A stretch of 64,000 bases of DNA, taken from contig CAYNGY010000002.1 of assembly GCA_964397195.1 (NCBI GenBank), positions 180,012 to 244,011 of the forward strand, read 5' to 3'. Of this stretch, positions 21,578-64,000 are shown one piece after another (positions within the stretch are counted from its first letter, which is position 1; the number at the start of each line of letters is the position of its first letter). The notes below the pieces were generated by a model. That model was not told the DNA's origin. It made no database searches and was given only the letters and a program-made list of their open reading frames with translations. A program made the translations under genes and the position numbers. The DNA comes from an uncultured Gammaproteobacteria bacterium (GTDB taxonomy: Bacteria > Patescibacteriota > Patescibacteriia > SBBC01 > CAIJZX01).

Positions 21578-21654
21578 GGGTGATTAGCTCAGTTGGTTAG
21601 AGCGCGCCGTTCACATCGGCGAGGTCTCAGGTTCAAATCCTGAATCACCCACCA
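21578..21654 (+). tRNA. tRNA-Val (anticodon CAC), with an encoded CCA end.
   Basis: The sequence is GGGTGATTAGCTCAGTTGGTTAGAGCGCGCCGTTCACATCGGCGAGGTCTCAGGTTCAAATCCTGAATCACCCACCA. The acceptor stem is GGGTGAT/ATCACCC. The anticodon loop is TTCACAT. The T-loop is GGTTCAAATCC. Confidence 0.85.
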
Positions 21655-32200: not shown

Positions 32201-32514
32201 GCACCTGTTCCGACAATGCGGCCCAACGGTGTACCCATGATGATCAGTGTGGTGGCGGGACCTGTAAGGCCCAAACCGTGTGTGCGACGCCCTTCGAGTC
32301 GTCGACCTGTTGGGCGGAGTCAACCCATAGATTTATGTTCCCAGCGGGCTCGACCGTTTATGGATATCAGTTCTCGGCCGGAACGTACCAGCTCAGTGCG
32401 CAGATGGAGTATGCGGGGGTCGGCAGTTTCCGGAACTTCTCGCCGCGATCAGCCGAGTGTGAATCAGGGGCGCTGAACGACTATCAGTGCTATAATTACC
32501 ATTACATCCAGTAA
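26269..32514 (+). CDS. Giant (2081 aa) cell-surface protein. It has an N-terminal signal peptide plus a VirB2/TrbC-pilin-like double-transmembrane module, several IPT/TIG domains and Cys-rich modules, and a C-terminal type-IV-pilin-like globular domain.
   Basis: The N-terminus reads LQVVYNVIRWALGILTFTALGFVMYGGFLWLTAAGNEKQIEKAKRVILQALIGMVIVLIAWAIVLFV, with two hydrophobic helices as in T4SS pilins. IPT-like segments include PLITRISPAAGKNGQCITVQGDYFE, VVTKLMPDSGRAGSGVSIHGCWFG and ILCKVLPPSAAPGTNVTMVGTGFT. The C-terminal RDTQRRQDLSAMARLLEAYKKSKGTFP matches the pilin/pseudopilin helix motif RxxDLxxxxxALELYxxxxGxYP. Confidence 0.6.
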   Translation: MRQKNIRTILSIGLLVAAVSGGLWLASTALPASAQTATAFSIESIGTKVGLKNTDLLQVVYNVIRWALGILTFTALGFVMYGGFLWLTAAGNEKQIEKAKRVILQALIGMVIVLIAWAIVLFVARFFRDATDTGNTNNTNSGVSCLPGSPDCPDPTSTFNVTTVATCADPSDYTTNVPRSSNVAVFFNAPVAQDSVQGAVEGSAPKLMTLRCGTDAANDPACATQDVATRPVSSQRFTANKSAATESNPGAEWVAKQRSNAITFVHRSFDTNATDAKNQLFEAERSYRIQVPRQGSATALTDATTQERPLVDCRNDDGSIIPNCQVDTDQHIIHWTFTTGEDVAGPAFGVTKTVPVSTYKYPTPVPSPAPVPDRDVDRDGALCIYFSGAVDPMSVDASSFTVTKYQATAPPTAAGNWVNGTLETSTLPTGDFTEPYFVSGGRGVCIGPKAQHEYDAFSWYRVHVDGIRNLCGTEMSPTPFEWVFESNDRLPGVEKVYPADGATNMCPATKVKVVFRTSMWNREASNCTVGVGSYVTSGRLTTGGVDAGRAFQVVDQFDPDQPNQNCRVFEFAPTTTALRLGQTYNGVVLTNRSIDSDGKKLEVGTENSGHPWSFTVGADAATCVQPPLITRISPAAGKNGQCITVQGDYFEKVNQADTNPDKADPGDGLTLGGRDQLTDADATWTNNSIVTVVDAGSLERDRKQPYKVTVHYGAPLNVDLSDEVADRFTLQSGDGSSGPCLLKLTKTSGPPGTLFNALGKRFGNGTGQSAVAYPLSPAAQELPYASWSATQVTGANIVTGTPVGEAPVSIVDAAGQISNEIQFTTTAPVVAGPGAPRVEESTLCELDPARRAIPSPNPKDGDQNVCLTVQPEVRFTMPMLDTSLTANGAVVVSDCTSGTCDVVPDTSVHVDADAKGLQIQMPRLTPSHKYSVTISGDVQSTTHAVMGADYTWRFTAQSGNGDCPIKAIGIAERNTSFSTLPFSYALHSRLYDAACRSITGACAAYDWTKTSSPNVITLSSTTSQDTIASSVDDGTIEEGVASVQVQCQEKVSPKVTITYDATSCTSDAQCQGTNRFGESCTTASHCVNSSCTPVVTKLMPDSGRAGSGVSIHGCWFGSYVDGRSKVIFGADQGELAREAPAFDPQICDNRSSWQNDYIIRAVPASSVTGSVKVIRSDTREASSGTPFTVNTVLHPILCKVLPPSAAPGTNVTMVGTGFTDKTLPDASLPVDSSNTTAQSSALIQNVDAAASLRSMTGYLRWNDKEIAAPIPSIGFGLSRVYIRANAIESNDVLFTVKDPNAAACVSCTETTSCPNAADGSVQGCSNVTKCCAPRPRVISSNPNDGETNMCRNTVTQLRFSLPLDANTATPESVRYTDGAFVRATEVSVHTDGTEGILTIQPGLLESNATQRVSLQGVAVANVADLKNASFETMQNGQVASWVNVRSKQTTDHPSGVTGKSGLADCSNCAAGEQAYLAQTIFQSNGDPWPANSMFRITGWVKVEQPANVKSGLITQCTDAADRLIDCTFDLVEAAPGLFTGTSSGWRKVTWYARTTVPAGLHLNCFARAGAKTWCDSIVVERMTDQATTLRGQNGVLVDTTTGTRSFTTSTEICTLDHVSVTPSYDHWETTNDQQTFVAEARSTNGQVIANTPAYSYTWTWKTGDAGIAKLGTGSDQISFSLRQALSGGKIGSTRVTATAAVTTNSAQPTEKPKKSGSARIVSSVCANPWQFVDSADNCDTASSPAACADFNFQIDYCRGAVGATLLPDFSYVGQDASTGIGAIEGENTSLGRKKSIFFKVDANATDAIGILIYDNTNFLTPADWFADHFPSRAGSGVFTTVGGYGAYQVGSTVYVGVTDLVGTAMRGRIFVFDYNSNQADSQTKVVYTAMLDGLMFNNNLNDDIERGQLQRDTQRRQDLSAMARLLEAYKKSKGTFPSLGSGSYVTGISTSKWPSWQATLGAALGKTLPVDPLNSFARTCSDNAAQRCTHDDQCGGGTCKAQTVCATPFESSTCWAESTHRFMFPAGSTVYGYQFSAGTYQLSAQMEYAGVGSFRNFSPRSAECESGALNDYQCYNYHYIQ

Positions 32515-35100: not shown

Positions 35101-36345
35101 ATGTCTCGAACTGAACTCATGACCGGCCTCGATATCGGATCTTCAGCGATCCGGGTTGTTGTTGGCCAGCCGCACCCGGCGGGAGAGGGGATTCAAATCA
35201 TCGGGGCTGCCGAAGGCCCAGCGGATGGGATTGCCAAGGGCACAATCACCAGCATCGAAGAGGCGGTCTCGGCGATTTCGGCTACCCTCGAAAAAGCTGA
35301 ACGAATGACCGGCGCGCCAGTTGAGCATGCGGTGGTTAGTATCAATGGCCCGCAGATTGCGTCCCAGGATAGCCATGGGATTGTAGCGGTGGCCAAGGCG
35401 GATGGTGAGATTAAACAGAACGATGTCGATCGAGTTCTGGAGGCTGCCCAGGCCGTGGCAACGCCCCCGAACTACGAGATTCTACACCGCATCCCACGCG
35501 CCTTTACCGTCGATAACCAGCATGGCGTAAAAGACCCGATCGGCATGTCGGCCATGCGTCTCGAAGTTGATGCGCAAATCATGCAGTGTCCGACGGCGCA
35601 GATGAAGAACCTAGAAAAAACAATTTACCGGACCGGCGTGAGTATCGATGATATCGTCCTCGGTGTTTTAGCCTCCGCGGAAGCCGCGGTAACCAAACGT
35701 CAAAAAGAGTTAGGGGTGGCTCTCGTCAACATCGGTTCGTCGACGACCAGCCTTTTGGTGTTTGAAGAGGGCGATGTTCTCCATACAAAAGTATTGCCGA
35801 TCGGCGCGAGCCATGTGACCAATGACATTGCCATCGGCCTGCGGGTGTCGATTGACCTGGCGGAGAAAGTGAAGATTGAACATGGAACGGCCATGCCAGA
35901 TGATGTGCAGAAGCGCGATGATATTAATCTCTCCACACTCGGTGGTGACGATATTGCGGTGTCACGACGGCAGGTGGCCGAGATTATTGAGGCCCGGATT
36001 GAGGAAGTGTTTAAGCTTCTCGATCGTGAACTGCAACAGATTGATCGTTCGGGGTTATTGCCGGCCGGTATTATTTTGACCGGTGGTGGTGCGAAACTCC
36101 CAGGACTGGTGGAGATGGCGAAAAAAGAATTTCGTTTGCCGGCGGCTGTCGGTATGCCAGTCGGTTTCACCAGTGCGATAGAAAAAATAAATGACCCGTC
36201 GTTCACCACCGCACTCGGTTTGGCGGCGTGGGGTCTTAGTGCGCATCGAACCCAGGGTCTCCTCGGCGGCGTCGGCAATCGACTCGGAGCCGTCCGCGAT
36301 ACCGTTGGCTCGATCCGCGGATGGTTTAAGGGTTTTCTCCCGTAA
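35101..36345 (+). CDS. ftsA: Cell division protein FtsA.
   Basis: Actin-like ATPase motifs are present (GLDIGSSAIRVVVG, VNIGSSTTSLLVF, ILTGGGAKLPGL). Confidence 0.9.
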   Translation: MSRTELMTGLDIGSSAIRVVVGQPHPAGEGIQIIGAAEGPADGIAKGTITSIEEAVSAISATLEKAERMTGAPVEHAVVSINGPQIASQDSHGIVAVAKADGEIKQNDVDRVLEAAQAVATPPNYEILHRIPRAFTVDNQHGVKDPIGMSAMRLEVDAQIMQCPTAQMKNLEKTIYRTGVSIDDIVLGVLASAEAAVTKRQKELGVALVNIGSSTTSLLVFEEGDVLHTKVLPIGASHVTNDIAIGLRVSIDLAEKVKIEHGTAMPDDVQKRDDINLSTLGGDDIAVSRRQVAEIIEARIEEVFKLLDRELQQIDRSGLLPAGIILTGGGAKLPGLVEMAKKEFRLPAAVGMPVGFTSAIEKINDPSFTTALGLAAWGLSAHRTQGLLGGVGNRLGAVRDTVGSIRGWFKGFLP

Positions 36346-36408
36346 ACTCATCTGAACACCTAAAGTGTTCAGCCTCGTTCCTGTGGATTTCTTTGCTGGA
36401 AGGGGCTG

Positions 36409-36417
36409 TGGTATACT
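36409..36417 (+). promoter_or_regulatory. Extended -10 element TGgTATACT upstream of ftsZ.
   Basis: The element lies at 36409-36417. It is preceded by a perfect 8-bp hairpin CTGAACAC/GTGTTCAG at 36350-36370 in the ftsA-ftsZ spacer. Confidence 0.4.
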
Positions 36418-36426
36418 ATTGCTACC

Positions 36427-37584
36427 ATGTCACCACGACAACCGTTAGAAGTAAAACCAGACATCGAGACATTTGCCAAGATTAAGGTGGTTGGCGTTGG
36501 TGGCGCGGGCGGTTCCGCACTCAATCGGATGATGCAGCATAAAATTCGCGGCATCGAATTTATGGCAATCAATACTGATGCCCAGGCGCTTCATCACAAT
36601 AGTGCGCCGGTCAAAGTTCATATCGGCAAAACGACGACCCGTGGGCTCGGAGCGGGGATGGACCCGGAACTGGGACGCAAAGCGGCCGAAGAAGACCAAG
36701 ATGAAATTCGGGAAATGCTGAAAGACTCGGACATGGTTTTCATTACCGGCGGTCTTGGCGGCGGCACGGGCACAGGCGCGATGCCGTTGGTGGCCGAGGT
36801 GGCGCGTGATCTTGGGGCGCTGACCGTAGCGGTTGTCACCCGCCCATTTTCTTTTGAAGGCGCGCAACGAAAACAGTTCGCCGACCAAGGCTACGGTGAG
36901 CTGGTTGATAATGTCGATACCATTATTACGATTCCAAACGATCGGTTACTGCAGATCATTGATAAGAAGACATCGTTACTTGAGTCCTTCCAAGTGGTTG
37001 ACGATGTGTTGCGTCAGGGTATCCAAGGAATCGCCGAGTTGATTACGGTTCCCGGATTGATCAACGTCGATTTCGCTGACGTCAAAGCGATTATGAAAGA
37101 TCAGGGTACGGCCCTGATGGGAATTGGTCGCGGCACCGGTGAGAACCGAGCAGTTGATGCGGCGAAAGCAGCGATTGATTCGCCACTGTTGGAAATTCCG
37201 ATCGATGGTGCAAAAGGTATTCTCTTTACCGTTACGGCCGGCACAAGCATCAGCATGTACGAGGTGAACGAGGCGGCACGAGTCATTACTCAATCGGCTG
37301 ATCCGAATGCCAAAATTATTTTTGGTGCGGTGATTGACGAAGATCTGAAGGATGAAGTGAAGGTCACGGTCATCGCGACAGGTTTTGGCAAAGGCGTGCC
37401 TCGTCCAACAAAGAAAGTCATGCCAGCGTCGACGCCATTTGAAACGCAAATGGAGCGACCAAAACCGACGCCGACCATGGCGGCTCCGATGCAGTCACCG
37501 ACGCCAATGGTCAAGCCAACCCCAAAACCGGCACCGGAGAATGATCTGGAGATCCCGGCGTTCATTCGGAAGAAGATGATGTAA
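36427..37584 (+). CDS. ftsZ: Cell division GTPase FtsZ.
   Basis: The tubulin signature GGGTGTG is present, along with NTDAQAL and a C-terminal DLEIPAFIRKK peptide (the FtsA/ZipA-binding tail). Confidence 0.95.
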   Translation: MSPRQPLEVKPDIETFAKIKVVGVGGAGGSALNRMMQHKIRGIEFMAINTDAQALHHNSAPVKVHIGKTTTRGLGAGMDPELGRKAAEEDQDEIREMLKDSDMVFITGGLGGGTGTGAMPLVAEVARDLGALTVAVVTRPFSFEGAQRKQFADQGYGELVDNVDTIITIPNDRLLQIIDKKTSLLESFQVVDDVLRQGIQGIAELITVPGLINVDFADVKAIMKDQGTALMGIGRGTGENRAVDAAKAAIDSPLLEIPIDGAKGILFTVTAGTSISMYEVNEAARVITQSADPNAKIIFGAVIDEDLKDEVKVTVIATGFGKGVPRPTKKVMPASTPFETQMERPKPTPTMAAPMQSPTPMVKPTPKPAPENDLEIPAFIRKKMM

Positions 37585-41419: not shown

Positions 41420-44400
41420 ATGTCGACACTGTCTTCCACGCTCACCTCGACCACAACTTCTTCGCGCGCTGAGGACCGTCGGCCATTGCCGGTGCCAGCC
41501 CGCAAAGGTCGGGGATTAAAAATTGAGCGGCGGTACACCATGGCGGGACAGGACCCGCTCGATCAGGTGCAGTATGAGAAGCGTTCGTCGATTATTAAGA
41601 ACCCGGACGGGAAAGTGATTAAAGAAATCCCGGTGGTGGAGGTACCGGTGACGTGGAGTCAGGTGGCGAGTGATATTTTGGCGCAAAAGTATTTCCGGAA
41701 AGCCGGTGTGCCGCTGACCGACGATCAGGGTCAGCCAATCGTGGACGCCGAAGGGCGGCGGAAGCTTGGTTCGGAGACGAGCGCGAAGCAGGTAGTGCGC
41801 CGCTTAGCCGGGACGTGGCAACACTGGGGTGAAACGCACGGCTACTTCGCGTCGAGTGATGATGCGCAGGCTTTTCAGGACGAGATGGAGTACATGCTGA
41901 TTCGGCAGATGGGCGCGCCGAATTCACCGCAGTGGTTTAATACCGGATTACATTGGGCGTATGGAATTACGGGCGAGCCGCAAGGACACTACTATGTCGA
42001 CCCGCAGACCGGTGTATTGACCGTCTCGGCCGATGCCTATACCCACCCACAACCGCACGCCTGTTTTATTCAACGAATCAAAGATGATTTAGTGAATGAT
42101 GGCGGGATATTTGATTTGGTGACCCGCGAAGCGCGACTGTTTAAATTCGGCTCGGGGACGGGGAGTAATTTTTCGGCGCTCCGTGGTCGCGGGGAACGGC
42201 TCTCCGGCGGCGGCCAGAGCTCGGGGATGATGTCATTTCTGAAAATTTTTGATCGCTCGGCCGGGGCCATTCAATCCGGGGGCACGACCCGACGCGCGGC
42301 GAAAATGGTGATCGTAAACGCCGATCATCCGGACGTCCAAGAATTTGTGCAATGGAAAGTTGTCGAAGAAAAAAAGGTTGCCGATCTGGTGACCGGGAGT
42401 CAAATGAATGCGCGGGAGTTGAATGAAGTGATGCGAGTCGCCGTGGCCGAGAAATCTACCGACTTTACTCGGAATACGCGCTTGAAACAGGCCGTGCAAC
42501 ATGCGGTTCGACGTCGCGTCCCGCTTAGTTATATTCACCGCGTCTTGGCGTTAGCCGATCAGGGGCAAACGGAATTCGACATGGCGACCTACTCAACGCA
42601 TTTTGAAGATGAAGCGTACAACACGGTATCCGGACAGAACTCGAACAACACCGTCCGCGTCACCAACGACTACATGACCGCCGTTGAGCGCGATGAGGCC
42701 TGGCACTTGCGCTGGCGAACAAACAATGAGGTCGCGCGAACGATTCAGGCGCGTCACCTGTGGGACGAAATCGCTTTTGCCTCGTGGTCGTGCGCTGATC
42801 CGGGATTGCAATTTGATACGACGATTAATGAGTGGCACACCTGCCCGGAAGATGGGCGAATCAACGGGTCAAATCCGTGTTCGGAATATATGTTCCTCGA
42901 TGACACGGCCTGTAACTTGGCGTCCATCAATCTCGCCCACTTCTACAATCCGGAAACCGGCATTTTCGATGTTGACGCGTTTAAACATGCGTCACGCATT
43001 TGGACGATTACCTTGGAAATTTCCGTGTTGATGGCGCAGTTTCCGGGGAAGGAGATTGCCGAGCTGTCGTATCTCTACCGAACACTCGGACTCGGGTACG
43101 CCAACCTCGGAACGGTCTTGATGATGATGGGGATACCGTACGACTCGCCGCAGGCCTTAGCGGTGGCCGGATCGTTGTCGGCAATTATGACCGGCGAGGC
43201 CTACGCGACGAGCGCGGAAATGGCCGCCCATCTCGGGGCCTTCCCGAACTACGAGCGGAATGCCGAGCATATGCTACGCGTGATTCGTAATCATCGCCGC
43301 GCGGCGTATAACGCACCGGACGGTGAGTACGAAGGACTGACGATTAAACCGATGGGGATTGCGCCGGAGGTGACGCCGGAATACCTCCTGAAGGCCGCCC
43401 GTGATGCATGGGATCGCGCCTTGCAATGGGGGAAGGAACATGGGTTCCGCAATGCCCAGGTGACGGTCATCGCGCCGACCGGGACGATCGGCCTGGTGAT
43501 GGATTGTGACACGACGGGCGTCGAGCCGGATTTCGCCATCGTCAAATTCAAAAAGTTGGCCGGCGGCGGATACTTCAAGATCGTCAATCAATCGGTGAAC
43601 AAAGCGCTGAAGCGACTCGGATATTCTGAGCAGCAGATTGCCGATATCGAATTATATAGTCGGGGTCATAATACGCTGGTTGGGGCGCCGTACGTGAATC
43701 ATGAGACACTCAAAGCGAAAGGCCTTCAGGGTGACGAGCTGGCGCGAATTGAAAAAGCACTCGATGGTGCCTTTGACATTCGGTTCGTCATCACACCGAC
43801 GCTCCTCGGCGCCGCGACCCTCGAGCGACTCGGATTTGGGGCCAGTAGCGCGAATCTCGGGATCGCCCTGCTCGAAGGACTTGGATTTACAAAAGAAGAG
43901 ATTGCGGCGGCGAATGAATATGTGGCCGGGACGATGACGATTGAGGGCGCACCGCACTTAAAACTTGAGCACTACCCGATCTTTGACTGTGCGAACCGCT
44001 GTGGTGTCAAAGGCAAGCGGTACATCGCCTACAACGCCCATATCAAAATGATGGCGGCGGTCCAGCCGTTCATCTCGGGCGCGATTTCGAAGACCATTAA
44101 CATGCCGGCCGAGGCGACGATTGAAGAGGTGAAACAGGTCCACTGGGATGCTTGGAAAATGATGATCAAGGCGATCGCGCTCTATCGCGACGGGTCGAAA
44201 CTTTCACAACCGCTGAATAGTACCTCAGCCGATGATGAATCGTTACTGGTCGGCTTGGAGGATCAAGATACCGACCCAGTGGTCACACCACAGCAGATCC
44301 AGGACGTGGCGGCGGTGCGCGCGGTGAAACAGAAACTTCCGCCGAAGCGGGTCGGCTGGACGCAGGAAGCAGTTGTCGGCGGACATAAGATATTTATCCG

Positions 44401-44926
44401 CACCGGTGAATATAACGACGGTCGGCTGGGTGAGGTCTTTATCGACATGTACAAAGACGGCGCGGCGTATCGCTCGCTCATTAACTGCTTTGCGATTCTG
44501 GTTTCGAAGAGCCTCCAGTACGGCATGCCGCTGGAAGAATTGGTCGACACCTTCACCTTTACTCGCTTTGAACCGGCCGGACCGGTACAGGGCCATCCGA
44601 ACATCAAGATGTCGACGAGCGTCCTCGACTACATCTTCCGCTTGCTCGGGTACGAATATCTTAATCGTGAAGACTTAGTGCAGGTCAAACCGAATCATGA
44701 TCAACCGATCCAAACCGAATTGCCGATGGCGGCCGCGACCGCGGTGGTCAAAAAGCCGGAGGAGCGTCAGGTGACTATGAGCGCAACGGAACCGGATGGA
44801 CGCCAAACCGCCCGGGCCCAAGGTTTTACCGGTGACACCTGTACAAATTGCGGGTCGATGAAAATGAAGCGCAATGGATCATGTCTCGTCTGCATTGAGT
44901 GTGGGACGACAACCGGCTGTAGTTGA
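41420..44926 (+). CDS. nrdJ: Class II (adenosylcobalamin-dependent) ribonucleoside-diphosphate/triphosphate reductase NrdJ, with a C-terminal Zn ribbon.
   Basis: It is 1168 aa long with RNR-barrel signatures. The C-terminus reads CTNCGSMKMKRNGSCLVCIECG. It is co-located with nrdR and a B12 adenosyltransferase. Confidence 0.85.
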   Translation: MSTLSSTLTSTTTSSRAEDRRPLPVPARKGRGLKIERRYTMAGQDPLDQVQYEKRSSIIKNPDGKVIKEIPVVEVPVTWSQVASDILAQKYFRKAGVPLTDDQGQPIVDAEGRRKLGSETSAKQVVRRLAGTWQHWGETHGYFASSDDAQAFQDEMEYMLIRQMGAPNSPQWFNTGLHWAYGITGEPQGHYYVDPQTGVLTVSADAYTHPQPHACFIQRIKDDLVNDGGIFDLVTREARLFKFGSGTGSNFSALRGRGERLSGGGQSSGMMSFLKIFDRSAGAIQSGGTTRRAAKMVIVNADHPDVQEFVQWKVVEEKKVADLVTGSQMNARELNEVMRVAVAEKSTDFTRNTRLKQAVQHAVRRRVPLSYIHRVLALADQGQTEFDMATYSTHFEDEAYNTVSGQNSNNTVRVTNDYMTAVERDEAWHLRWRTNNEVARTIQARHLWDEIAFASWSCADPGLQFDTTINEWHTCPEDGRINGSNPCSEYMFLDDTACNLASINLAHFYNPETGIFDVDAFKHASRIWTITLEISVLMAQFPGKEIAELSYLYRTLGLGYANLGTVLMMMGIPYDSPQALAVAGSLSAIMTGEAYATSAEMAAHLGAFPNYERNAEHMLRVIRNHRRAAYNAPDGEYEGLTIKPMGIAPEVTPEYLLKAARDAWDRALQWGKEHGFRNAQVTVIAPTGTIGLVMDCDTTGVEPDFAIVKFKKLAGGGYFKIVNQSVNKALKRLGYSEQQIADIELYSRGHNTLVGAPYVNHETLKAKGLQGDELARIEKALDGAFDIRFVITPTLLGAATLERLGFGASSANLGIALLEGLGFTKEEIAAANEYVAGTMTIEGAPHLKLEHYPIFDCANRCGVKGKRYIAYNAHIKMMAAVQPFISGAISKTINMPAEATIEEVKQVHWDAWKMMIKAIALYRDGSKLSQPLNSTSADDESLLVGLEDQDTDPVVTPQQIQDVAAVRAVKQKLPPKRVGWTQEAVVGGHKIFIRTGEYNDGRLGEVFIDMYKDGAAYRSLINCFAILVSKSLQYGMPLEELVDTFTFTRFEPAGPVQGHPNIKMSTSVLDYIFRLLGYEYLNREDLVQVKPNHDQPIQTELPMAAATAVVKKPEERQVTMSATEPDGRQTARAQGFTGDTCTNCGSMKMKRNGSCLVCIECGTTTGCS

Positions 44927-45231: not shown

Positions 45232-45576
45232 ATGACTGACCAACCACAATCAAACGCGACCGAACAGATTAAGAACGAGCTGAATAAGATTCCGCCGACG
45301 ACCGATCGGAATATGATGGCCGCGCTATCGTATGTTTGGATTCTCTCGATCGTGATGCTCGCCGTGCGCGGCAAGGAGCCGTTCATTAAATTCCATGCGA
45401 AGCAAGCCCTCGTACTCTTCATTCTCTCGATTTTCTCGTGGATTCCGGTGCTTGGCTGGATTGTTGGTCTCTTGGCCTTAATCGGCATGATCCTCGGCTT
45501 TATCAATGCCTGGCAAGGAAAGGAATACCGCTTGCCGTTCGTGGCGGACTTAGCAGATCGATTCATCAAGATCTAA
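45232..45576 (+). CDS. DUF4870-family small membrane protein.
   Basis: Two to three transmembrane helices are present, plus the HAKQALVL motif typical of DUF4870. It is preceded by a TGgTATACT element at about 45197. Confidence 0.5.
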   Translation: MTDQPQSNATEQIKNELNKIPPTTDRNMMAALSYVWILSIVMLAVRGKEPFIKFHAKQALVLFILSIFSWIPVLGWIVGLLALIGMILGFINAWQGKEYRLPFVADLADRFIKI

Positions 45577-45640: not shown

Positions 45641-46216
45641 ATGCAGAAAAAAGCACCAAAAAATCTTCGCCTTGCCGAACGTGGACTGACCCACGCGTAT
45701 ATTGGCGACGGAAAAGGCAAGACGACGGCGGCGATTGGGACGGCCGTTCGCGCCCGCGGCTATGGCTGGAACGTGGCGTTCATTCAATTCATCAAAGAAG
45801 AGAAATGGCCGAGTGGGGAGCGGGGGATGTTACGGAAACTCGGAATTGAGGTCCATGTTCTTGGGCAGGGGTTCTATAAAATTATCAATGATCGGAAACC
45901 GGCCGCGGCGCATAAAACGGCGGCCAAAAAAGCGCTACAGTTCGCGCAGGCACTCGTTCGCTCCGGAACATTTCAGCTGGTGGTACTTGATGAGGTAGGC
46001 TCGGCGGTCGAAGAGGGGCTCCTGCCGCGGGCGCCGGTGGAAGCAATGCTGCGGGCGCGAGCGCGGGATGCGCGGGCGAAGCATGTCCATCTGATCTGGA
46101 CGGGACACAAACGAATCCCGTGGATGTTGAAATACGCTGATTTGGTGACGGATATGCGGATGGTGAAACATCCGTACTATCGTGGTATTATTGCCACGAA
46201 GGGATTAGATTACTAA
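45641..46216 (+). CDS. cobO: Cob(I)alamin/cob(I)yrinic acid a,c-diamide adenosyltransferase (CobA/CobO/BtuR family).
   Basis: A P-loop-like GDGKGKTTAAIG is present, along with VVLDEVG and a C-terminal WTGHKRIPWMLKYADLVTDM. Confidence 0.75.
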   Translation: MQKKAPKNLRLAERGLTHAYIGDGKGKTTAAIGTAVRARGYGWNVAFIQFIKEEKWPSGERGMLRKLGIEVHVLGQGFYKIINDRKPAAAHKTAAKKALQFAQALVRSGTFQLVVLDEVGSAVEEGLLPRAPVEAMLRARARDARAKHVHLIWTGHKRIPWMLKYADLVTDMRMVKHPYYRGIIATKGLDY

Positions 46217-46220
46217 CTAT

Positions 46221-46685
46221 ATGAAACAAACAAATCAAACACGTATCGGCGGAGTGATGATCGCCCTAGTCTTGCTCTATGCGCTGTCGCTGATTTGGAC
46301 GACGACACAAGATCATCCGCTCTGGATGGATACCGGGTGGCTGCGGTATATGTACTACTCGTTTAGTATGGTGGCCATTTTGGGCGTTGGACTCTGCATC
46401 GTGTCCCTGCTGACCCTTCACCATCCGCGGAGCGGAAAAGTGGCGTGGTTATTCCCGGCAATTTGGGCCTTCATTTTTTCCTGGCTGTGGTATACGTTCG
46501 CCTTAGGCGTGGCCTACAACCTGACGCTCCTCCAGGAGCTGCAATTTCTTGGTCCGAGAGTGATCGCCAATTATGACGCCTACATGTGGTGGCGTTTCGC
46601 GGCTCTGGATGGGCTGAATATGGCGTTTGCCTCGGTCGTCCTCGTGACGCCGCTCATTGTCTGGCTGTACCGGAAAAAACAATAA
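46221..46685 (+). CDS. Membrane protein of unknown function with 4 transmembrane helices.
   Basis: Called from its hydrophobic helices. No recognisable motif was found. Confidence 0.4.
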   Translation: MKQTNQTRIGGVMIALVLLYALSLIWTTTQDHPLWMDTGWLRYMYYSFSMVAILGVGLCIVSLLTLHHPRSGKVAWLFPAIWAFIFSWLWYTFALGVAYNLTLLQELQFLGPRVIANYDAYMWWRFAALDGLNMAFASVVLVTPLIVWLYRKKQ

Positions 46686-46695
46686 CACGCCATTT

Positions 46696-47154
46696 ATGAT
46701 TCACTGGAAACCCGCTCACTCAGCTGCCATCTCGGCTATCTCGCTATCGGTTGCCCTACTGCTGTACTACCTTTTTGCGACCTTGCCGATCCTTCTGCCG
46801 GGGTGGTTGGCCACGGTCATGTCGTTTATGGTGGCCATTCTTCTCGGTTCGACGCTCGATCATGGTCTGCGTGGTGCGCCGCTGAAAAAGCGACTCACTC
46901 GGTTTGTATTGTCGGTGATTACCATCGTCGCTTGGCTCGAGGTAGGTCAGTATATCCTCGTCCGATTATCGGAGGCACCGAATCGGTTGAATTTTCAGAA
47001 TGAGGGATGGTGGTGGCAGATGATCCTGAGCGAACTCGGCTGGCTCAGCTTGGTGGCGATCGTTTTAGCCGGGGTGGGGATGGGCGTGGCGCGTTGGCTG
47101 GAACGGTCATCCACAGCCCTCTTGGTTATTGACCAGCCCAAACAGAAAGCGTAA
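46696..47154 (+). CDS. Membrane protein of unknown function with 4 transmembrane helices.
   Basis: The start was chosen at MIHWKPAHS, after the upstream stop. The ORF-track start overlaps the previous gene. Confidence 0.4.
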   Translation: MIHWKPAHSAAISAISLSVALLLYYLFATLPILLPGWLATVMSFMVAILLGSTLDHGLRGAPLKKRLTRFVLSVITIVAWLEVGQYILVRLSEAPNRLNFQNEGWWWQMILSELGWLSLVAIVLAGVGMGVARWLERSSTALLVIDQPKQKA

Positions 47155-47157
47155 CAT

Positions 47158-47345
47158 TTCGCTACGGCAAGCCGGTGTAAATCCGGCACTGTCCCGCAAC
47201 CGTAATCCCGGATCACGTCCGGGAAAGTCGGACGCCATCCTGAACGCTGTTCAGGTAAAGATAAGACCTTCGTGGAAAGGCACGCATATTCACGTTTGGT
47301 GAATTGCCTGCTCAACACGTTGGCGGGTCCTTATTCGTCCCCGTT
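47158..47345 (+). ncRNA. Cobalamin (B12) riboswitch.
   Basis: The conserved core GCCGGUGuAAAUCCGGCaCuGUCCCGCAACcGUAA lies at 47171-47204. It matches the cGGUGnnAAUCCnnnnCnGnCCCGCnACnGUaa consensus. A downstream GGGAAAGUCGGAcGCC B12-box-like segment follows. The element sits 5' of DUF4430 genes, a known B12-riboswitch regulon. Confidence 0.7.
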
Positions 47346-47367
47346 TTCGGGATAACCCACCACGCGT

Positions 47368-47712
47368 ATGAAAAAACCCCTTATTCTTGCGGCGATATTC
47401 GCCGTAGCTCTGTTCGGGGCGAGTTGTAGCTCGTCATCGACGACTAATACAAACACGGTCTCAACCGTGACGAATACCTCGAGTGCCGTCAGCTATGCTG
47501 GTCAGGACGGCAAAACTGCGCTAGAATTGCTCGCGCAAACCCACACTATCGATGCCACAACCGAAGGCTTCATCAACGCGATCGACGGACAGAAACCGGA
47601 AGGCCGGCAGTTCTGGGCGTTCTACGTTAACGGCGCGCAAGCGAGCGTCGGCGCGAAAGACTACACGACGAAAACCGGCGACCAGATTGAATGGCGCCTC
47701 GAAGCTTACTAA
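47368..47712 (+). CDS. DUF4430-domain lipoprotein, a BtuG-like putative surface B12-binding protein.
   Basis: A lipobox LFGASC is present, followed by a Ser/Thr linker. The DUF4430 C-terminus reads FWAFYVNGAQASVGAKDYTTKTGDQIEWRLEAY. Confidence 0.6.
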   Translation: MKKPLILAAIFAVALFGASCSSSSTTNTNTVSTVTNTSSAVSYAGQDGKTALELLAQTHTIDATTEGFINAIDGQKPEGRQFWAFYVNGAQASVGAKDYTTKTGDQIEWRLEAY

Positions 47713-47761
47713 TCAACCGCACGTTTCACTCCATCACCATTGGACCGTCACCTGGACAACA

Positions 47762-48142
47762 GTGGCCGGCGGAACGATCGTGCTCCTCGGATTCATCGTC
47801 TTCGTGCTCTTGGCGATTGTCCTTGTCACCCCCGATAGCCCGGCCGATGCCCGATCGACGGTCACGGTTACCTCAGTCACGCCGCAGGCTCAGCGTTCGG
47901 GTGTGATCCGACTGCGAACGCCGCGTCTGCTCGAAGCGGTCGCGCGCTGGTCGGCCGGGACTGGGCAGGCCACCGAGTACATGACCGTCGGGAGCGGCGC
48001 GACACTGCAACAATGTCTCGGGTATTCAGCGGCTGACGGTCGCTGGCTGATCCGGGTCAACGATCGTATCATCGATGATCTGTTCCACGCCAGACTCCAG
48101 CAAGGTGATGATGTGCGACTCGAATTTATCCCACACTCATGA
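47762..48142 (+). CDS. Second DUF4430-domain protein, membrane-anchored by a single transmembrane helix. The start codon is uncertain.
   Basis: The transmembrane segment is TIVLLGFIVFVLLAIVLV. The C-terminus WLIRVNDRIIDDLFHARLQQGDDVRLEFI matches the same DUF4430 pattern. The ORF-track start at 47552 overlaps the previous gene in another frame. GTG at 47762 is a possible start. Confidence 0.45.
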   Translation: MAGGTIVLLGFIVFVLLAIVLVTPDSPADARSTVTVTSVTPQAQRSGVIRLRTPRLLEAVARWSAGTGQATEYMTVGSGATLQQCLGYSAADGRWLIRVNDRIIDDLFHARLQQGDDVRLEFIPHS

Positions 48143-48699
48143 ATAAAACGCGAACTCTTTTGCTTCCGGTTTTTGGCCTGATTATCATCGGCGCGTTGCT
48201 CCGCGTGTTACGACATTACGGGTGGATTGATCTTCCGCCAAATGTGGCGCCGGTCAGCGTGATTGCCTTCTTGGCGGCGGCGTATCTGCCGCGGCGGTGG
48301 GGCGTTTTCGCGCCACTTGGGTTGATGGCGGCGAGTGATATCGCCATTGGCGGGTATAACTGGCGGATTATGGCCGTGGTCTACGTTTCGTTCGGTATTT
48401 CCTACCTGCTGGGCACGATCTTGCGCCATCGGCGCAGTGTGATGCGGTTGAGCGCGGTGACGCTGGCTGGTGCGACCAGCTTCTTCCTCTTGACCAATGC
48501 CGCTGATTGGCTCTGGAGCGGGACATACGCTCGAACGTTGGGCGAACTCGGCCGGGCGTACCAGGCCGGACTGCCGTTCTTCCGAAATATGCTGATCGGT
48601 GATCTCGCTTACGTCGGCATCGGCTTTGGCATCGTGGAGGGATGTGTGCTATATTGGCGGCGTCATCAGGCTCAGGCCGAGATGACATCCCATGGCTGA
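48139..48699 (+). CDS. Polytopic membrane protein, candidate B12 transporter/ECF-type substrate-binding (S) component.
   Basis: About 5-6 transmembrane helices are present. The start overlaps the upstream stop by ATGA, so the gene sits in the riboswitch-controlled operon. No defining motif was found. Confidence 0.3.
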   Translation: MNKTRTLLLPVFGLIIIGALLRVLRHYGWIDLPPNVAPVSVIAFLAAAYLPRRWGVFAPLGLMAASDIAIGGYNWRIMAVVYVSFGISYLLGTILRHRRSVMRLSAVTLAGATSFFLLTNAADWLWSGTYARTLGELGRAYQAGLPFFRNMLIGDLAYVGIGFGIVEGCVLYWRRHQAQAEMTSHG

Positions 48700-49597
48700 T
48701 TATCGACGGTATCAACCGCGTCGGACCACGTCGTCTATTTCCGGACGAACGGTGGCTATTTGGGTTGTGGCTGGGGTACTGGTGATTGCGGTTTCGACCT
48801 GGCTCTTCCGTGGTCGCGCCACGCCAACTGACACTGGGAATGGGCCGGATATTACGCTCGTCAATGACCAGGCCAACACAAATCAGGTCGTGACCAATGC
48901 GGCGGTGACGAATACCAGTGTGACCAATACCGCGGTGGCGACCACGAGTAGTTTGTCGTCAGCGACGATGGCGACGATTCTCCAGTCTTGCCCGAACGCG
49001 GTATCGCAAGTTGGAACCTCGAAGCGAGTGGCGCTGACCTTTGATATTGTTGATGATGGTGAAGCGGTGACACGCCTGATAGACGTCCTCAAAGCCAAAA
49101 GTATTCCGGCCGCCTTTTTCATTACTGGTACCTATGCGGTTGACCACGGTTCGCTGTTGCAGGAGATTGTGGCCGCCGGGTTCCCGGTCTACAGTCGAGG
49201 CACGTCGACGAGTGTCAAATTTGGGACGGCCGAGGCGGCGACTGTGACGAGCGATCTGACGACCGCTGAGGCGAAAATTTCGGCGGCCAGCGGCCAGAGC
49301 GCAAAACCGTTTTTCCGCCCGGCCCGTGGTGAGACAAGTGCGGCGGCGGTGACGGCGGCGCGGCAGGCGGGTTTTTGTACTATCACTTGGACGGTAGACG
49401 GGAATGATTGGGACGATACGCAAACCGCGGATGGTGCGTCAACGCGCGTGCTGGACCGACTGACAAACGGGGCGATTGTGCTGTTTGGCGCTGGGTACGA
49501 GATTACGCCAACGGCCGTGGAAACGCTCGCCACCGAGATCCCGAAACGGGGATATACGTTATCCACGCTCGCTGAACTCTTCACAGCTGACAGGTAG
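48692..49597 (+). CDS. Polysaccharide deacetylase (NodB/CE4 family) with an N-terminal membrane anchor and a Thr/Asn linker.
   Basis: A CE4-like TFDIVDDGEAVTRLIDVLKAKSIPAAFFITGTYAVDH is present. The transmembrane segment is VAIWVVAGVLVIAV. Confidence 0.6.
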   Translation: MADYRRYQPRRTTSSISGRTVAIWVVAGVLVIAVSTWLFRGRATPTDTGNGPDITLVNDQANTNQVVTNAAVTNTSVTNTAVATTSSLSSATMATILQSCPNAVSQVGTSKRVALTFDIVDDGEAVTRLIDVLKAKSIPAAFFITGTYAVDHGSLLQEIVAAGFPVYSRGTSTSVKFGTAEAATVTSDLTTAEAKISAASGQSAKPFFRPARGETSAAAVTAARQAGFCTITWTVDGNDWDDTQTADGASTRVLDRLTNGAIVLFGAGYEITPTAVETLATEIPKRGYTLSTLAELFTADR

Positions 49598-49647: not shown

Positions 49648-50847
49648 ATGGATACACCTATCACATCGCGTCCGTCGACGCTTTCCACAAATACCATCGG
49701 GTTGCTGATCGTGCTGAGTCTCGTTTTTGGCGGGGCAAGTGGGGCGACCATGGCCTACGTCCTGATCGGTAACGATGCGACGCCGGGAACCGGGACCACG
49801 CGACAAACAGTGAGTGTCGTGGAGAGCTCGGCCACGATTGATGTCGTGAAGAAGGCGAACCCGGCCGTGGTTAGCGTCATTGCTAGTAAAGACTACTCGC
49901 AAATTTACGGGAACCGCCCGGTCTCCCCATACGACCAATTCTTCGGTATCGGGAACAACACGCCATCAACACCGCAAGGGAAAACCGAAGTCTCAAGCGG
50001 ATCGGGGTTCATTGTTCGGGCCGATGGATTGATTGTGACCAATAAGCATGTGGTGAGCGATACCGATGCCCAATACACGGTGGTCATGAATGACGGGAAG
50101 AAATACGATGCCAAGATTTTGGCGACCGATCCCTCAAATGACGTGGCCTTTGTGAAGATTGAGGCTACCGGGTTGCCAACCTTAACGTTGGGCGACTCGG
50201 ACGCGGTGCAGATTGGTCAGAGTGTGGTGGCTATCGGCAATGCCCTCGGTCAGTACCGGAACACCGTGACGCAAGGGGTGATTTCTGGACAATCACGGAA
50301 TATTACGGCTGGTGACGGCTCGGGTTCGTCGGAGAGCCTGACAGACGTGTTCCAGACGGATGCCAGCATCAATCCGGGGAACTCAGGCGGCCCGTTGTTG
50401 GACCTGACCGGGAGCGTGGTGGCGATGAATACGGCTATTGATCAACAGGGGACGTTGATCGGTTTTGCGATTCCCATTAATGCGGTCAAAAAAGACCTCG
50501 AGAGCGTTGAAAAGAACGGTAAGATCGTCCAGCCGTACTTAGGTGTTCGCTATACGCTTCTCACAAAAGCCATTGCCGATAAGAATTCGTTGCCGGTTGA
50601 TGCTGGGGCCTGGATTCAAAAGGGGACCGGGGCGGATGAGGTCGCGGTCTTGGCCGATAGTCCGGCTTCCAAGGCGGGCTTAGCCGAGGGCGACATCATT
50701 GTCTCGCTCAATGGTGCGGAGATTAGTGAGGATCATCCGCTGACCGGCATTTTGACGAAATTCATGCCCGGGGATGTGGTGACCATCGTTATTTACCACG
50801 GCAATCAGAAAAAAGAGGTCAAAGTGGCGCTCGAGGAGCGAAAGTAG
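49648..50847 (+). CDS. htrA: HtrA/DegP-family serine protease with a PDZ domain.
   Basis: The catalytic motifs TNKHVV and GNSGGPLLD are present. A C-terminal PDZ domain (GDIIVSLNG) follows. Confidence 0.85.
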   Translation: MDTPITSRPSTLSTNTIGLLIVLSLVFGGASGATMAYVLIGNDATPGTGTTRQTVSVVESSATIDVVKKANPAVVSVIASKDYSQIYGNRPVSPYDQFFGIGNNTPSTPQGKTEVSSGSGFIVRADGLIVTNKHVVSDTDAQYTVVMNDGKKYDAKILATDPSNDVAFVKIEATGLPTLTLGDSDAVQIGQSVVAIGNALGQYRNTVTQGVISGQSRNITAGDGSGSSESLTDVFQTDASINPGNSGGPLLDLTGSVVAMNTAIDQQGTLIGFAIPINAVKKDLESVEKNGKIVQPYLGVRYTLLTKAIADKNSLPVDAGAWIQKGTGADEVAVLADSPASKAGLAEGDIIVSLNGAEISEDHPLTGILTKFMPGDVVTIVIYHGNQKKEVKVALEERK

Positions 50848-61274: not shown

Positions 61275-61350
61275 GGGCTCATAGTGTAGCGGTTAACACG
61301 TCTCCCTGTCACGGAGAAGATCGGGGGTTCGAATCCCCCTGGGCCCGCCA
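61275..61350 (+). tRNA. tRNA-Asp (anticodon GTC), with an encoded CCA end.
   Basis: The sequence is GGGCTCATAGTGTAGCGGTTAACACGTCTCCCTGTCACGGAGAAGATCGGGGGTTCGAATCCCCCTGGGCCCGCCA. The acceptor stem is GGGCTCA/TGGGCCC with one G·U pair. The anticodon loop is CTGTCAC. It is flanked by a 14-bp inverted repeat (61258-61271 / 61351-61364). Confidence 0.8.
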
Positions 61351-63616: not shown

Positions 63617-64000
63617 GTCAGGTAGGGTTATGAAATAAATGGTGGAGATGGCGGGTCTTTCACCCGCGTCTCGACGGACGATCCGTTCATACTGTTTCCC
63701 ATGCTCAGCCCACTGTTCGTTGGCCGCCATCAGGTAGACAGCGGGCAAAAGCCCTGCTGGCGGTGTTCAGAAGCTACACAGTGCTCGTCCTGAACGAGCG
63801 ATCACTGGCCCGGCGAAATGACACCCGCGGTCGGCCTAGCCGGAGTTGACCGGGCGGATGCGTCACGGGGTTTAGACCGTGGCGAAAGCAAGCTGTTGAA
63901 CAGCAAACGCTTTCGCGAGCGCTGTTTTCAGCCGCGTAAGTGTGTTGGCACTTATCGCTTCCCGCACATTAACGACGGTGCGAGCGTGTCGGCATGATAC

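Follow-up and report, generated by a model that had tools for sequence, protein, structure and literature searches.

A probable vitamin B12 scavenging operon of a Patescibacterium preceded by a putative compact variant of the cobalamin riboswitch

The locus described here lies on contig CAYNGY010000002.1 (assembly GCA_964397195.1) within a stretch of 64 kb, which is called the window in the following and in which all features of the module are found on the plus strand. It comprises genes encoding an adenosylcobalamin (AdoCbl)-dependent ribonucleotide reductase (NrdJ) and an ATP:corrinoid adenosyltransferase (CobO), a leader with a short cobalamin riboswitch-like RNA, and behind it genes for a DUF4430 lipoprotein, for a second, membrane-anchored protein (P2) and for a polytopic membrane protein of the family DUF6580. 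The genes could be identified and the folds of their products predicted, the RNA is conserved and covaries, the gene order is kept among relatives, and DUF6580 co-occurs statistically with DUF4430 and with RNAs of B12 type. On these grounds we consider it quite probable that the locus is an operon by which a Patescibacterium scavenges vitamin B12 and which is controlled by a compact variant of the cobalamin riboswitch. Each component is of a known kind (cobalamin riboswitch, transcobalamin-type SLBB binders, S-component-type permease, CobO and NrdJ). New are the truncated riboswitch architecture, which escapes Rfam, and the recurrent DUF4430-DUF6580 module without genes of ATP-binding cassette (ABC) type.

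Searches against family libraries covered the open reading frames (ORFs) of the 45-50 kb region of the window. The identities of cobO and nrdJ, which had been given in a preliminary description of this DNA, were borne out (Table 1); against the NCBIfam equivalog TIGR00708, CobO scored 143 bits, which is under the cut-off of 167.75. For comparison, a genome scan for DUF6580 was performed, which led to at least 574 loci among the GTDB species representatives, and 80 of these were kept for locus counts. The relatives among the 80 loci are mostly Patescibacteria, the closest ones being labelled Candidatus Kerfeldbacteria. The order NrdJ-DUF4870-CobO-gap/leader-DUF4430-P2-DUF6580-deacetylase-HtrA is kept in about 17 loci (L001-L015, L044 and L056; phmmer against the locus ORFs), and over the whole set nrdJ is present in 21 and cobO in 19 of the 80 loci. 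The earlier proposal of a B12-acquisition module is upheld by this synteny, by the covarying aptamer and by the RNA elements of two syntenic loci (L012 and L014, see below). Its extension to a regulon including cobO and nrdJ is not, since both genes lie upstream of the promoter and the RNA and appear to be tied to the module by synteny.

Table 1. Features of the module and of its surroundings; positions are counted from the first nucleotide of the window.
Feature	Position	Strand	Remarks
nrdJ	41420-44926	+	NCBIfam NF005736, 1794.6 bits (cut-off 1737); class II AdoCbl-dependent ribonucleotide reductase, consumer of the cofactor
Gene of small DUF4870 membrane protein	45232-45576	+	PF09685, 30.4 bits
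Gene of cobO/btuR-type ATP:corrinoid adenosyltransferase	45641-46216	+	PF02572, 170.2 bits (cut-off 25.7)
Two overlapping multi-pass membrane ORFs	46221-46685, 46657-47154	+	no family match
Sigma70-type promoter	47129-47157	+	-35 TTGACC 47129-47134, 17-nt spacer, -10 TAACAT 47152-47157
Leader, 213 nt	47155-47367	+	between upstream ORF and lipoprotein gene
P3	47165-68 with 47234-37	+	four-way junction core 47165-47237; 3-5 bp across leaders
P4 hairpin	47171-87	+	loop L4 GGUGnAAAUCC
P5 hairpin	47190-98	+	loop L5 UCCCG
P6	47200-02 with 47229-31	+	CCG/CGG; optional extension hairpin 47206-24, present in the window
Variable hairpin between P3 and P13	47239-47255	+	covarying stem
J segment AAAGAUAAGA and P13 hairpin CCUU-CGUGGA-AAGG	47256-47280	+	J near-invariant; L13 complementary to L5
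Expression platform	47307-47338	+	CCUGCU 47307-12, switch segment ACACGUUGGCGGG 47315-27, U-rich tract 47328-38
Translation initiation region UAACCCACCACGCGU with AUG	47353-47370	+	mimics aptamer strand CCCGCCAC
Lipoprotein gene, DUF4430	47368-47712	+	PF14478, 56.1 bits
Gene of P2, membrane-anchored, 126 aa	47762-48142	+	GTG start, identical to database protein P0045
Gene of DUF6580 membrane protein	48139-48699	+	PF20221, 121.5 bits
Polysaccharide deacetylase gene	48692-49597	+	PF01522
HtrA gene	49648-50847	+	Trypsin/PDZ domains

Within the leader, the AdoCbl riboswitch model RF01482 matches locally at 47171-47231 with 36.6 bits (cut-off 50; E 4.4e-5 for a search of 601 nt), which agrees with the B12-type core placed previously at 47171-47204. 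The match covers model positions 32-89 of 149, i.e., P4, P5 and P6, and the core sequences GGUGnAAAUCC of L4, GUCCCGCnACnGU and AGUCGGA are aligned to it with high posterior probability. By nhmmer the leader was found at the same place in ten syntenic loci. The leaders of the relatives match families of the cobalamin clan only, with 23.7-36.7 bits, the closest approach to a threshold being L090 with 31.2 against 31.5 bits, and L085 can be aligned over its full length to the short class-II model RF01689 (24.8 bits). Elements that do pass the threshold of the Cobalamin family RF00174 stand at the corresponding site of the syntenic loci L012 and L014.

For the RNA comparison, 18 orthologous leaders were aligned. 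The sequences GTCCCGC, AC and GT are invariant in all 18, 16 of them share an unchanged motif AAGACCTTCGTGGAAAGGC, and the AAAGAYAAGA linker ahead of P13 is nearly invariant. The motif served as query for the metagenome scan, in which this 19-mer of the leader gave 13 matches: seven further distinct leaders, two duplicates and four chance matches (L081, L083, L086 and L092), which lie inside coding sequence and were discarded. On the structure listed in Table 1, 98.2% of the cells of the alignment form standard pairs, compared with 30-50% if the 3' partners are slid. Seven of the 19 pairs are changed on both sides, and all five helices contain at least one such pair: C:G/U:A in P3, C:G/A:U and G:C/U:A/C:G in P4, G:C/U:A in P5, C:G/G:C in P6 and U:A/C:G in P13, the stem of which reads CCUC/GAGG in L011. 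None of 500 shuffles reached the covariation score. RNAalifold, when run without an input structure, returned the same five helices and in addition a strongly covarying variable hairpin with seven pairs, each of them changed on both sides in 4-8 sequences. In most relatives this hairpin bears a GUCGA loop (e.g., L005 3883-3910), which is found neither in the window nor in L093; the loop might provide a tertiary contact compensating for missing P1/P2. A further contact may exist between L5 and L13: L13, CG(U)GGA, is complementary to L5, UCCCG, with one bulged U, and exactly so (CGGGA) in L044 and L011, so that judged by this complementarity an L5-L13 kissing loop is a candidate element of the fold.

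With a covariance model derived from the 18 leaders, these leaders reach 70-118 bits, and a single copy is detected in the window. The model also picks up B12-type elements with up to 49 bits in many further DUF6580 loci, almost all of them on the strand of DUF6580. Some of these loci contain two B12-type RNAs (L028 at 3168-3258 and 3311-3412, L058 at 3114-3235 and 4848-4948, L061 at 4484-4526 and 6064-6181; in L030 the second one is located at 5482-5628). The two RNAs of L028 are adjacent and possibly form a tandem riboswitch, elsewhere the second element lies downstream of DUF6580, and that of L030 is followed by a large DUF4430-like ORF. An alternative register, in which the invariant AAGACAAGACCUUC would be the true B12 box and 3' strand of P3, as suggested by the global Rfam alignment of L001, was rejected: the GGY covaries with the proximal RCC (GGC/GCC, GGU/ACC) and the distal ACC is invariant.

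The promoter offers an explanation for the low Rfam scores. A TTGAC-N16/17-TAnnnT element is present in 13 of the 18 leaders, where its spacer is unconserved and its end lies 6-9 nt ahead of the GG of P3; the promoter of the window shows 9 of 12 matches in a consensus scan and overlaps the end of the upstream ORF. Judged by this geometry, the transcript most likely starts at P3 or within a few nucleotides of it, which would leave no space for the P1/P2 strands and the long P3 expected by the Rfam models, and the scores would be low because the 5' P1/P2 region is absent from a shortened variant. By the same geometry enclosing 5' P1/P2 helices would be absent from the leaders, and the global Rfam alignments in this part are full of non-canonical pairs. 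The sub-threshold score and the missing P1/P2 would also fit a leader that has decayed from a cobalamin riboswitch and no longer senses B12, with the operon being constitutive or otherwise controlled. We regard this as very improbable: core, P13 and platform are kept in 18 leaders, although the flanking proteins are only about 45-70% identical, and compensatory changes occur in every helix, whereas a remnant would not maintain conserved and compensated helices.

Behind P13, the leaders carry another variable hairpin, the sequence CCUGCU, the conserved switch segment ACACGUUGGCGGG and a U-rich tract of the UUUAUUCAU kind, and some of them add an optional hairpin. A CA-rich motif of the type UAACCCACCAAC or CCCACCAAC, conserved in 12 leaders, stands 2-8 nt before the AUG; the lipoprotein gene lacks a Shine-Dalgarno sequence, and so do many other genes of the window. 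The switch segment can pair with CCUGCU in a local hairpin (-7.8 kcal/mol in the window), with the aptamer strand CCCGCnACCGU of L5/P5/P6 (-12.7 to -19.5 kcal/mol) and with the region before the AUG. The latter duplex amounts to about -14 kcal/mol in the window and to -13.5 to -15.1 kcal/mol in 12 of 12 class-A leaders, compared with -6 to -12 kcal/mol in composition-matched shuffles. In L004 and L089, GGCAGG replaces GGCGGG, and this G-to-A change is accompanied by a U in the pre-AUG motif which restores the pairing. In L001, L007 and L085 the pre-AUG motif is missing together with the CACGUUGG loop, and the duplex between switch segment and translation initiation region is lost; L007 and L085 show a cleaner arrangement of hairpin and U tract. 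A conserved anti-terminator pairing of the strand following P13 with CCUGC was not adopted, its register being unconserved and the pairing missing in L002.

From these pairings we propose a switch that is turned off by B12. The promoter would start a transcript beginning almost directly with the compact riboswitch. If B12 is scarce, the switch segment would pair with the aptamer strand CCCGCAACCGU, thereby invading L5/P5/P6, the CA-rich region before the AUG would stay open and the operon would be expressed. If B12 is bound, the aptamer and the L5-L13 contact would lock and set the switch segment free, which could then either close the CCUGCU hairpin before the U-rich tract or pair with the look-alike CCCACCAC at the start codon, both resulting in the OFF state. 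Intrinsic termination is kept as one possible option in this scheme.

The two proteins encoded directly behind the leader had previously been described as DUF4430 proteins. For the lipoprotein this was confirmed by PF14478 (E 5.2e-15, with a cut-off of 23.8 bits for the score given in Table 1). Its signal peptide ends with LFGASC, the lipobox is conserved in the orthologues, and a weak PDB sequence match leads to the transcobalamin beta domain 5no0; we predict that it is an extracellular B12 binder. P2 has no Pfam match at E<=0.1, yet its predicted fold is that of the transcobalamin beta domain. The protein consists of an N-terminal transmembrane (TM) helix and a divergent SLBB/transcobalamin-beta-like ectodomain, and it evolves so fast that a database search with the single sequence returns its own copy only. 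PF14478 touches one of 12 P2 orthologues (E 0.0057), and hhalign of P2 against the lipoprotein family gave E 0.089. A link between P2 and DUF4430 at the level of sequence was given up, as jackhmmer in both directions, hhalign and a broad local DUF4430 profile (few bits) were all insignificant. An AlphaFold2 model of P2 based on 15 database orthologues reaches block-mean pLDDT (predicted local distance difference test) values of 89-96 in the ectodomain (model residues 51-139). In a Foldseek search with this model, ranks 1-18 are taken by 3u7z, transcobalamin, haptocorrin and intrinsic factor (E 3.5e-5 to 6.5e-3, target TM scores of 0.71-0.78, root-mean-square deviation of 2.7-3.0 A over about 100 residues). 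According to the model, the ectodomain of P2 is a beta-grasp fold with a transcobalamin-type insert. Both proteins hence carry the transcobalamin-beta (SLBB) fold, one being anchored by a lipid and the other by an N-terminal helix, and both would capture corrinoid at the cell surface.

The third protein behind the leader had been described as a translationally coupled polytopic membrane protein, in agreement with the overlap of its ATG with the stop codon of P2 (ATGA) and with the match to PF20221. Among 44 database homologues, one is named "DUF6580 family putative transport protein" by NCBI; DUF6580 is not mentioned in the literature searched. The structure model (pLDDT 88) has its best PDB fold match in the S-component FolT (4huq_S, TM scores of 0.57/0.63, probability 0.99), while TM scores of 0.42-0.46 were obtained with RibU (5kc0), and as modelled the protein adopts a six-helix S-component fold. 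A PDB search with the single sequence gave only a chance match to the light-harvesting complex I, so that a family profile was needed. The profile of 32 members has 6fnp_A as its sole PDB match (E 6.9e-4). By hhalign this match reaches 81% probability and E 1.2e-5 over 74 columns of TM1-3, with a shared LR...PNVxPV motif. The chain, annotated as "membrane protein" with 182 residues, was taken as CbrT by its length; 6FNP is ECF-CbrT, an energy-coupling factor (ECF) transporter of Lactobacillus delbrueckii, and CbrT is a proven S-component for B12 and cobinamide (PMC5997447). We assign DUF6580 as a putative CbrT-like B12 permease and probable distant relative of CbrT, which would take over corrinoid from the surface and carry it across the membrane; CobO would then adenosylate the imported cobalamin for NrdJ. 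The preliminary description, according to which the transporter might be novel or encoded elsewhere, holds as far as the window contains no ABC module, and falls short in that the membrane protein is recognisable as DUF6580. It underestimated both how atypical the RNA is and how far the transporter can be identified.

The B12 context of DUF6580 is recurrent. A DUF4430-like ORF lies directly upstream on the same strand in 46 of the 80 loci. The B12-core motif occurs on the strand of DUF6580, at most 4 kb upstream, in 36 loci, a number which rises to about 41 if matches of the covariance model are added; the RNA counts are lower bounds, many loci ending early on the upstream side. Any ABC-ATPase-like ORF was detected in the flanks (about 5 kb) of only three of the 80 loci, and none of these ORFs is adjacent.

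Several results weigh against a B12 scavenging operon of the composition proposed. With respect to the RNA, the search with Rfam covariance models, envisaged earlier as a check, failed at face value: with gathering scores as thresholds, the window yields two tRNAs and the transfer-messenger RNA (tmRNA) only, no cobalamin model qualifies there or in any of the 18 variant leaders, and it was the covariation among these leaders which rescued the assignment. L5 and L13 are nearly invariant, so that the kissing loop gains no support from covariation. The hairpin before the U-rich tract is weak with its -7.8 kcal/mol, the U tract follows 3-4 nt later, and a scan for consensus terminators made no call. 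On the protein side, P2 shows no significant sequence similarity to DUF4430, and the link of DUF6580 to CbrT is weak by sequence (E of about 1e-3 to 1e-5) and confined to TM1-3. Furthermore, some DUF6580 genes stand without B12 context, such as P0040 (L095 8225-8881). The neighborhood of P0040 is planctomycete-like, with PSCyt1/PSD1 genes and a hexapeptide transferase, and contains no DUF4430 and no B12-related gene calls (RNA was not searched at L095); the DUF6580 family may not be exclusively B12-linked. Finally, no ORF of ABC-ATPase size with Walker A and ABC signature and no ECF A/A'/T component was found in the 64 kb, in line with the earlier statement that canonical transporter genes are lacking nearby, and CbrT alone gave no growth on B12 in Escherichia coli (PMC5997447). 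The missing ABC ATPase together with the inactivity of solitary CbrT implies that the energising partner is missing or different.

How import would be energised can be read in different ways. DUF6580 could be an ordinary S-component of a group-II ECF transporter, which docks on a shared EcfAA'T module encoded elsewhere, and the system would then be a standard importer of the ECF-CbrT type with accessory surface binders. CbrT being the sole PDB sequence match, the fold match to FolT from an ECF complex, the inactivity of solitary CbrT in E. coli (PMC5997447) and the usual location of SLBB genes in CbiO/CbiQ operons (Burroughs et al., PMC1796856) speak for such an importer, which we take as a real possibility just short of an even chance. 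The ABC counts given above, with no ATPase in the window and any such ORF in merely three of 80 loci, speak against it. So do the labels of the DUF6580 loci, which include Verrucomicrobiota, Planctomycetia and Bacteroidota, where ECF modules are rare. The same lack of ABC genes in the window and almost all DUF6580 loci would be expected if DUF6580 works without an ECF module, uptake being driven by capture at the surface through the SLBB proteins and by intracellular trapping via CobO and NrdJ. BtuM and some BioY proteins work alone (PMC6072759, PMC11109136), the former being a precedent for B12 uptake by a solitary protein of S-component type, and the conserved pairing with extracellular binders is atypical of classical S-components. 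However, CbrT as the nearest characterised relative needs its ECF module, and the conserved Cys which defines BtuM is lacking, as no Cys column in the 32-sequence DUF6580 alignment A1 is invariant or near-invariant. A solitary mode is possible in our estimation, if clearly short of an even chance.

The ligand has to be considered as well. CbrT carries cobinamide too, a transcobalamin-like ECF operon of L. sakei (Lsa1839/1840) was proposed for heme uptake (bioRxiv 10.1101/864751), and specificity cannot be read from the sequence; import of another tetrapyrrole or of a B12 fragment (cobinamide, another cobamide or heme) in place of cobalamin would be compatible with these points. We nevertheless hold it to be improbable, as an aptamer of B12 type and a conserved association with CobO and NrdJ both suggest a complete corrinoid in need of adenosylation only, and no genes of nucleotide-loop assembly turned up in the ABC-motif scan of the window, the family libraries having been run on the ORFs of the 45-50 kb region only. 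Returning to a module for cobalamin itself, the most far-reaching version would combine two claims: DUF6580 with its two tethered transcobalamin-beta-type partners would be a self-sufficient, ECF-free B12 importer, i.e., next to BtuM a second solitary B12 family of S-component type, and a widespread one, through which Patescibacteria would mainly supply their B12-dependent ribonucleotide reductase, and the leader would represent a distinct minimal class of cobalamin riboswitches, which starts at +1 and in which one G-rich segment chooses between the aptamer core and a look-alike at the start codon. That both claims hold together seems rather unlikely to us.

The position of the DUF4870 gene between nrdJ and cobO is kept in most syntenic loci (L002-L004, L006-L008, L010, L013 and L015), and going by this conserved position the protein could belong to the B12 module. 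The two overlapping membrane ORFs between cobO and the leader have no match in Pfam or NCBIfam and no phmmer match in the 80 related loci and are outside the conserved module; a similar ORF, ending with …VIDQPKK at the promoter, is apparently present in the closest metagenomic relative, L093, alone. Downstream, the deacetylase gene begins 8 nt before the stop codon of DUF6580 and is followed by HtrA, both being syntenic with the module in Kerfeldbacteria-like loci. Given this overlap and synteny, the riboswitch-controlled transcript may reach these cell-envelope genes. Farther away, two giant ORFs on the plus strand (77-11920, 3947 aa, and 26269-32514, 2081 aa) with signal-peptide-like or repeat-rich starts probably encode large surface proteins of a type common in Patescibacteria. 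ORFs at 35101-37584 presumably code for FtsA- and FtsZ-like proteins, for which we take them by their first residues alone. A tmRNA gene (63640-64000, minus strand, 57.5 bits) is cut by the end of the window, and tRNA genes are located at 21578-21651 and 61275-61347, both on the plus strand.

The inner-membrane routes of B12 uptake are still unidentified in many B12-dependent bacteria (PMC6072759). With the present findings DUF6580, a family without functional name, gains a testable role as a CbrT-like B12 permease, the gene of which is usually accompanied by B12 riboswitches and by genes of extracellular transcobalamin-type binders, but not by ABC genes. As the module adjoins the gene of an AdoCbl-dependent ribonucleotide reductase, scavenged B12 may gate DNA synthesis in the reduced, partner-dependent cells of Patescibacteria. 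A whole clade of truncated cobalamin riboswitches goes undetected at the curated thresholds of Rfam, and the 18 sequences and their covariance model can serve to find more of them; no paper on cobalamin riboswitches in Patescibacteria was found in the literature searched.

Compared with the cobalamin riboswitches of Rfam clan CL00101 (RF00174, RF01482 and RF01689), the RNA of the window shares the L4 sequence GGUGnAAAUCC, the GUCCCGCnACCGU core, the four-way junction of P3-P6, the optional extension of P6, a P13 hairpin complementary to L5 and the site before B12 uptake genes. It differs in the absence of P1/P2 and of a long P3, the promoter placing its predicted 5' end 0-3 nt before a P3 of 3-5 bp, and in the extra covarying hairpin, the invariant AAAGAYAAGA linker and the bulged U in L13, and 18 of 18 leaders remain under the gathering thresholds. 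The short forms of the leader resemble class II, whereas the RNA of the window has a P6 extension like that of class I.

With ECF-CbrT the membrane protein has in common its small size (about 185 aa) and S-component type, the LR...PNVxPV motif in TM1/loop1 and the B12 context. DUF6580 is remote from CbrT in sequence and has a Pfam family of its own (PF20221); it is encoded together with two extracellular SLBB proteins and has no EcfAA'T nearby in the window or in 77 of the 80 related loci. BtuM of Proteobacteria (PMC6072759) is likewise a small protein of S-component fold in B12 context without an adjacent ECF module. The phyletic range of DUF6580 is a different one, BtuM is not among its sequence or fold matches, and it is not a member of the BtuM family, because the essential cobalt-ligating Cys80 of BtuM has no conserved counterpart.

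The SLBB proteins join the beta domains of transcobalamin, intrinsic factor and haptocorrin and the bacterial SLBB proteins (PF14478, e.g., PDB 3U7Z), the lipoprotein as a member of the Pfam family and P2 by the same fold, and a part in scavenging B12 is predicted for them as well. A crystal structure with cyanocobalamin exists for the human beta domain on its own (5NP4), and extracellular transcobalamin-like SLBB proteins of bacteria have been predicted to be B12 scavengers, maybe in surface complexes (Burroughs et al., 2007, PMC1796856). In contrast to transcobalamin-type proteins, the window lacks the alpha (alpha6-alpha6 barrel) partner domain and encodes two separate beta-type domains. 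Bacterial SLBB genes are mostly located in operons with CbiO/CbiQ-type genes, as reported for Firmicutes (PMC1796856), whereas the SLBB pair of the window is linked to DUF6580.

The earlier equation of DUF4430 with the BtuG family was mistaken, DUF4430 being the family of the transcobalamin beta domain (SLBB) and BtuG2 a seven-bladed beta-propeller (PMC10404256). BtuJ proteins carry DUF4465, and the idea of BtuH as a DUF4430 protein was dropped, since the BtuH paper names neither DUF4430 nor transcobalamin. The folds of BtuG, BtuH and BtuJ from Bacteroides, which work with the outer-membrane protein BtuB, are unrelated to those of the window proteins; both of the latter are small beta-grasp domains and not seven-bladed propellers docking on BtuB. 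In a Patescibacterium with its single membrane no TonB-dependent transporter is expected. The likeness to these systems is one of function by analogy, in that the proteins of the window, too, would catch B12 at the cell surface for a transporter under the control of a riboswitch, as the surface lipoproteins BtuG, BtuH and BtuJ do.

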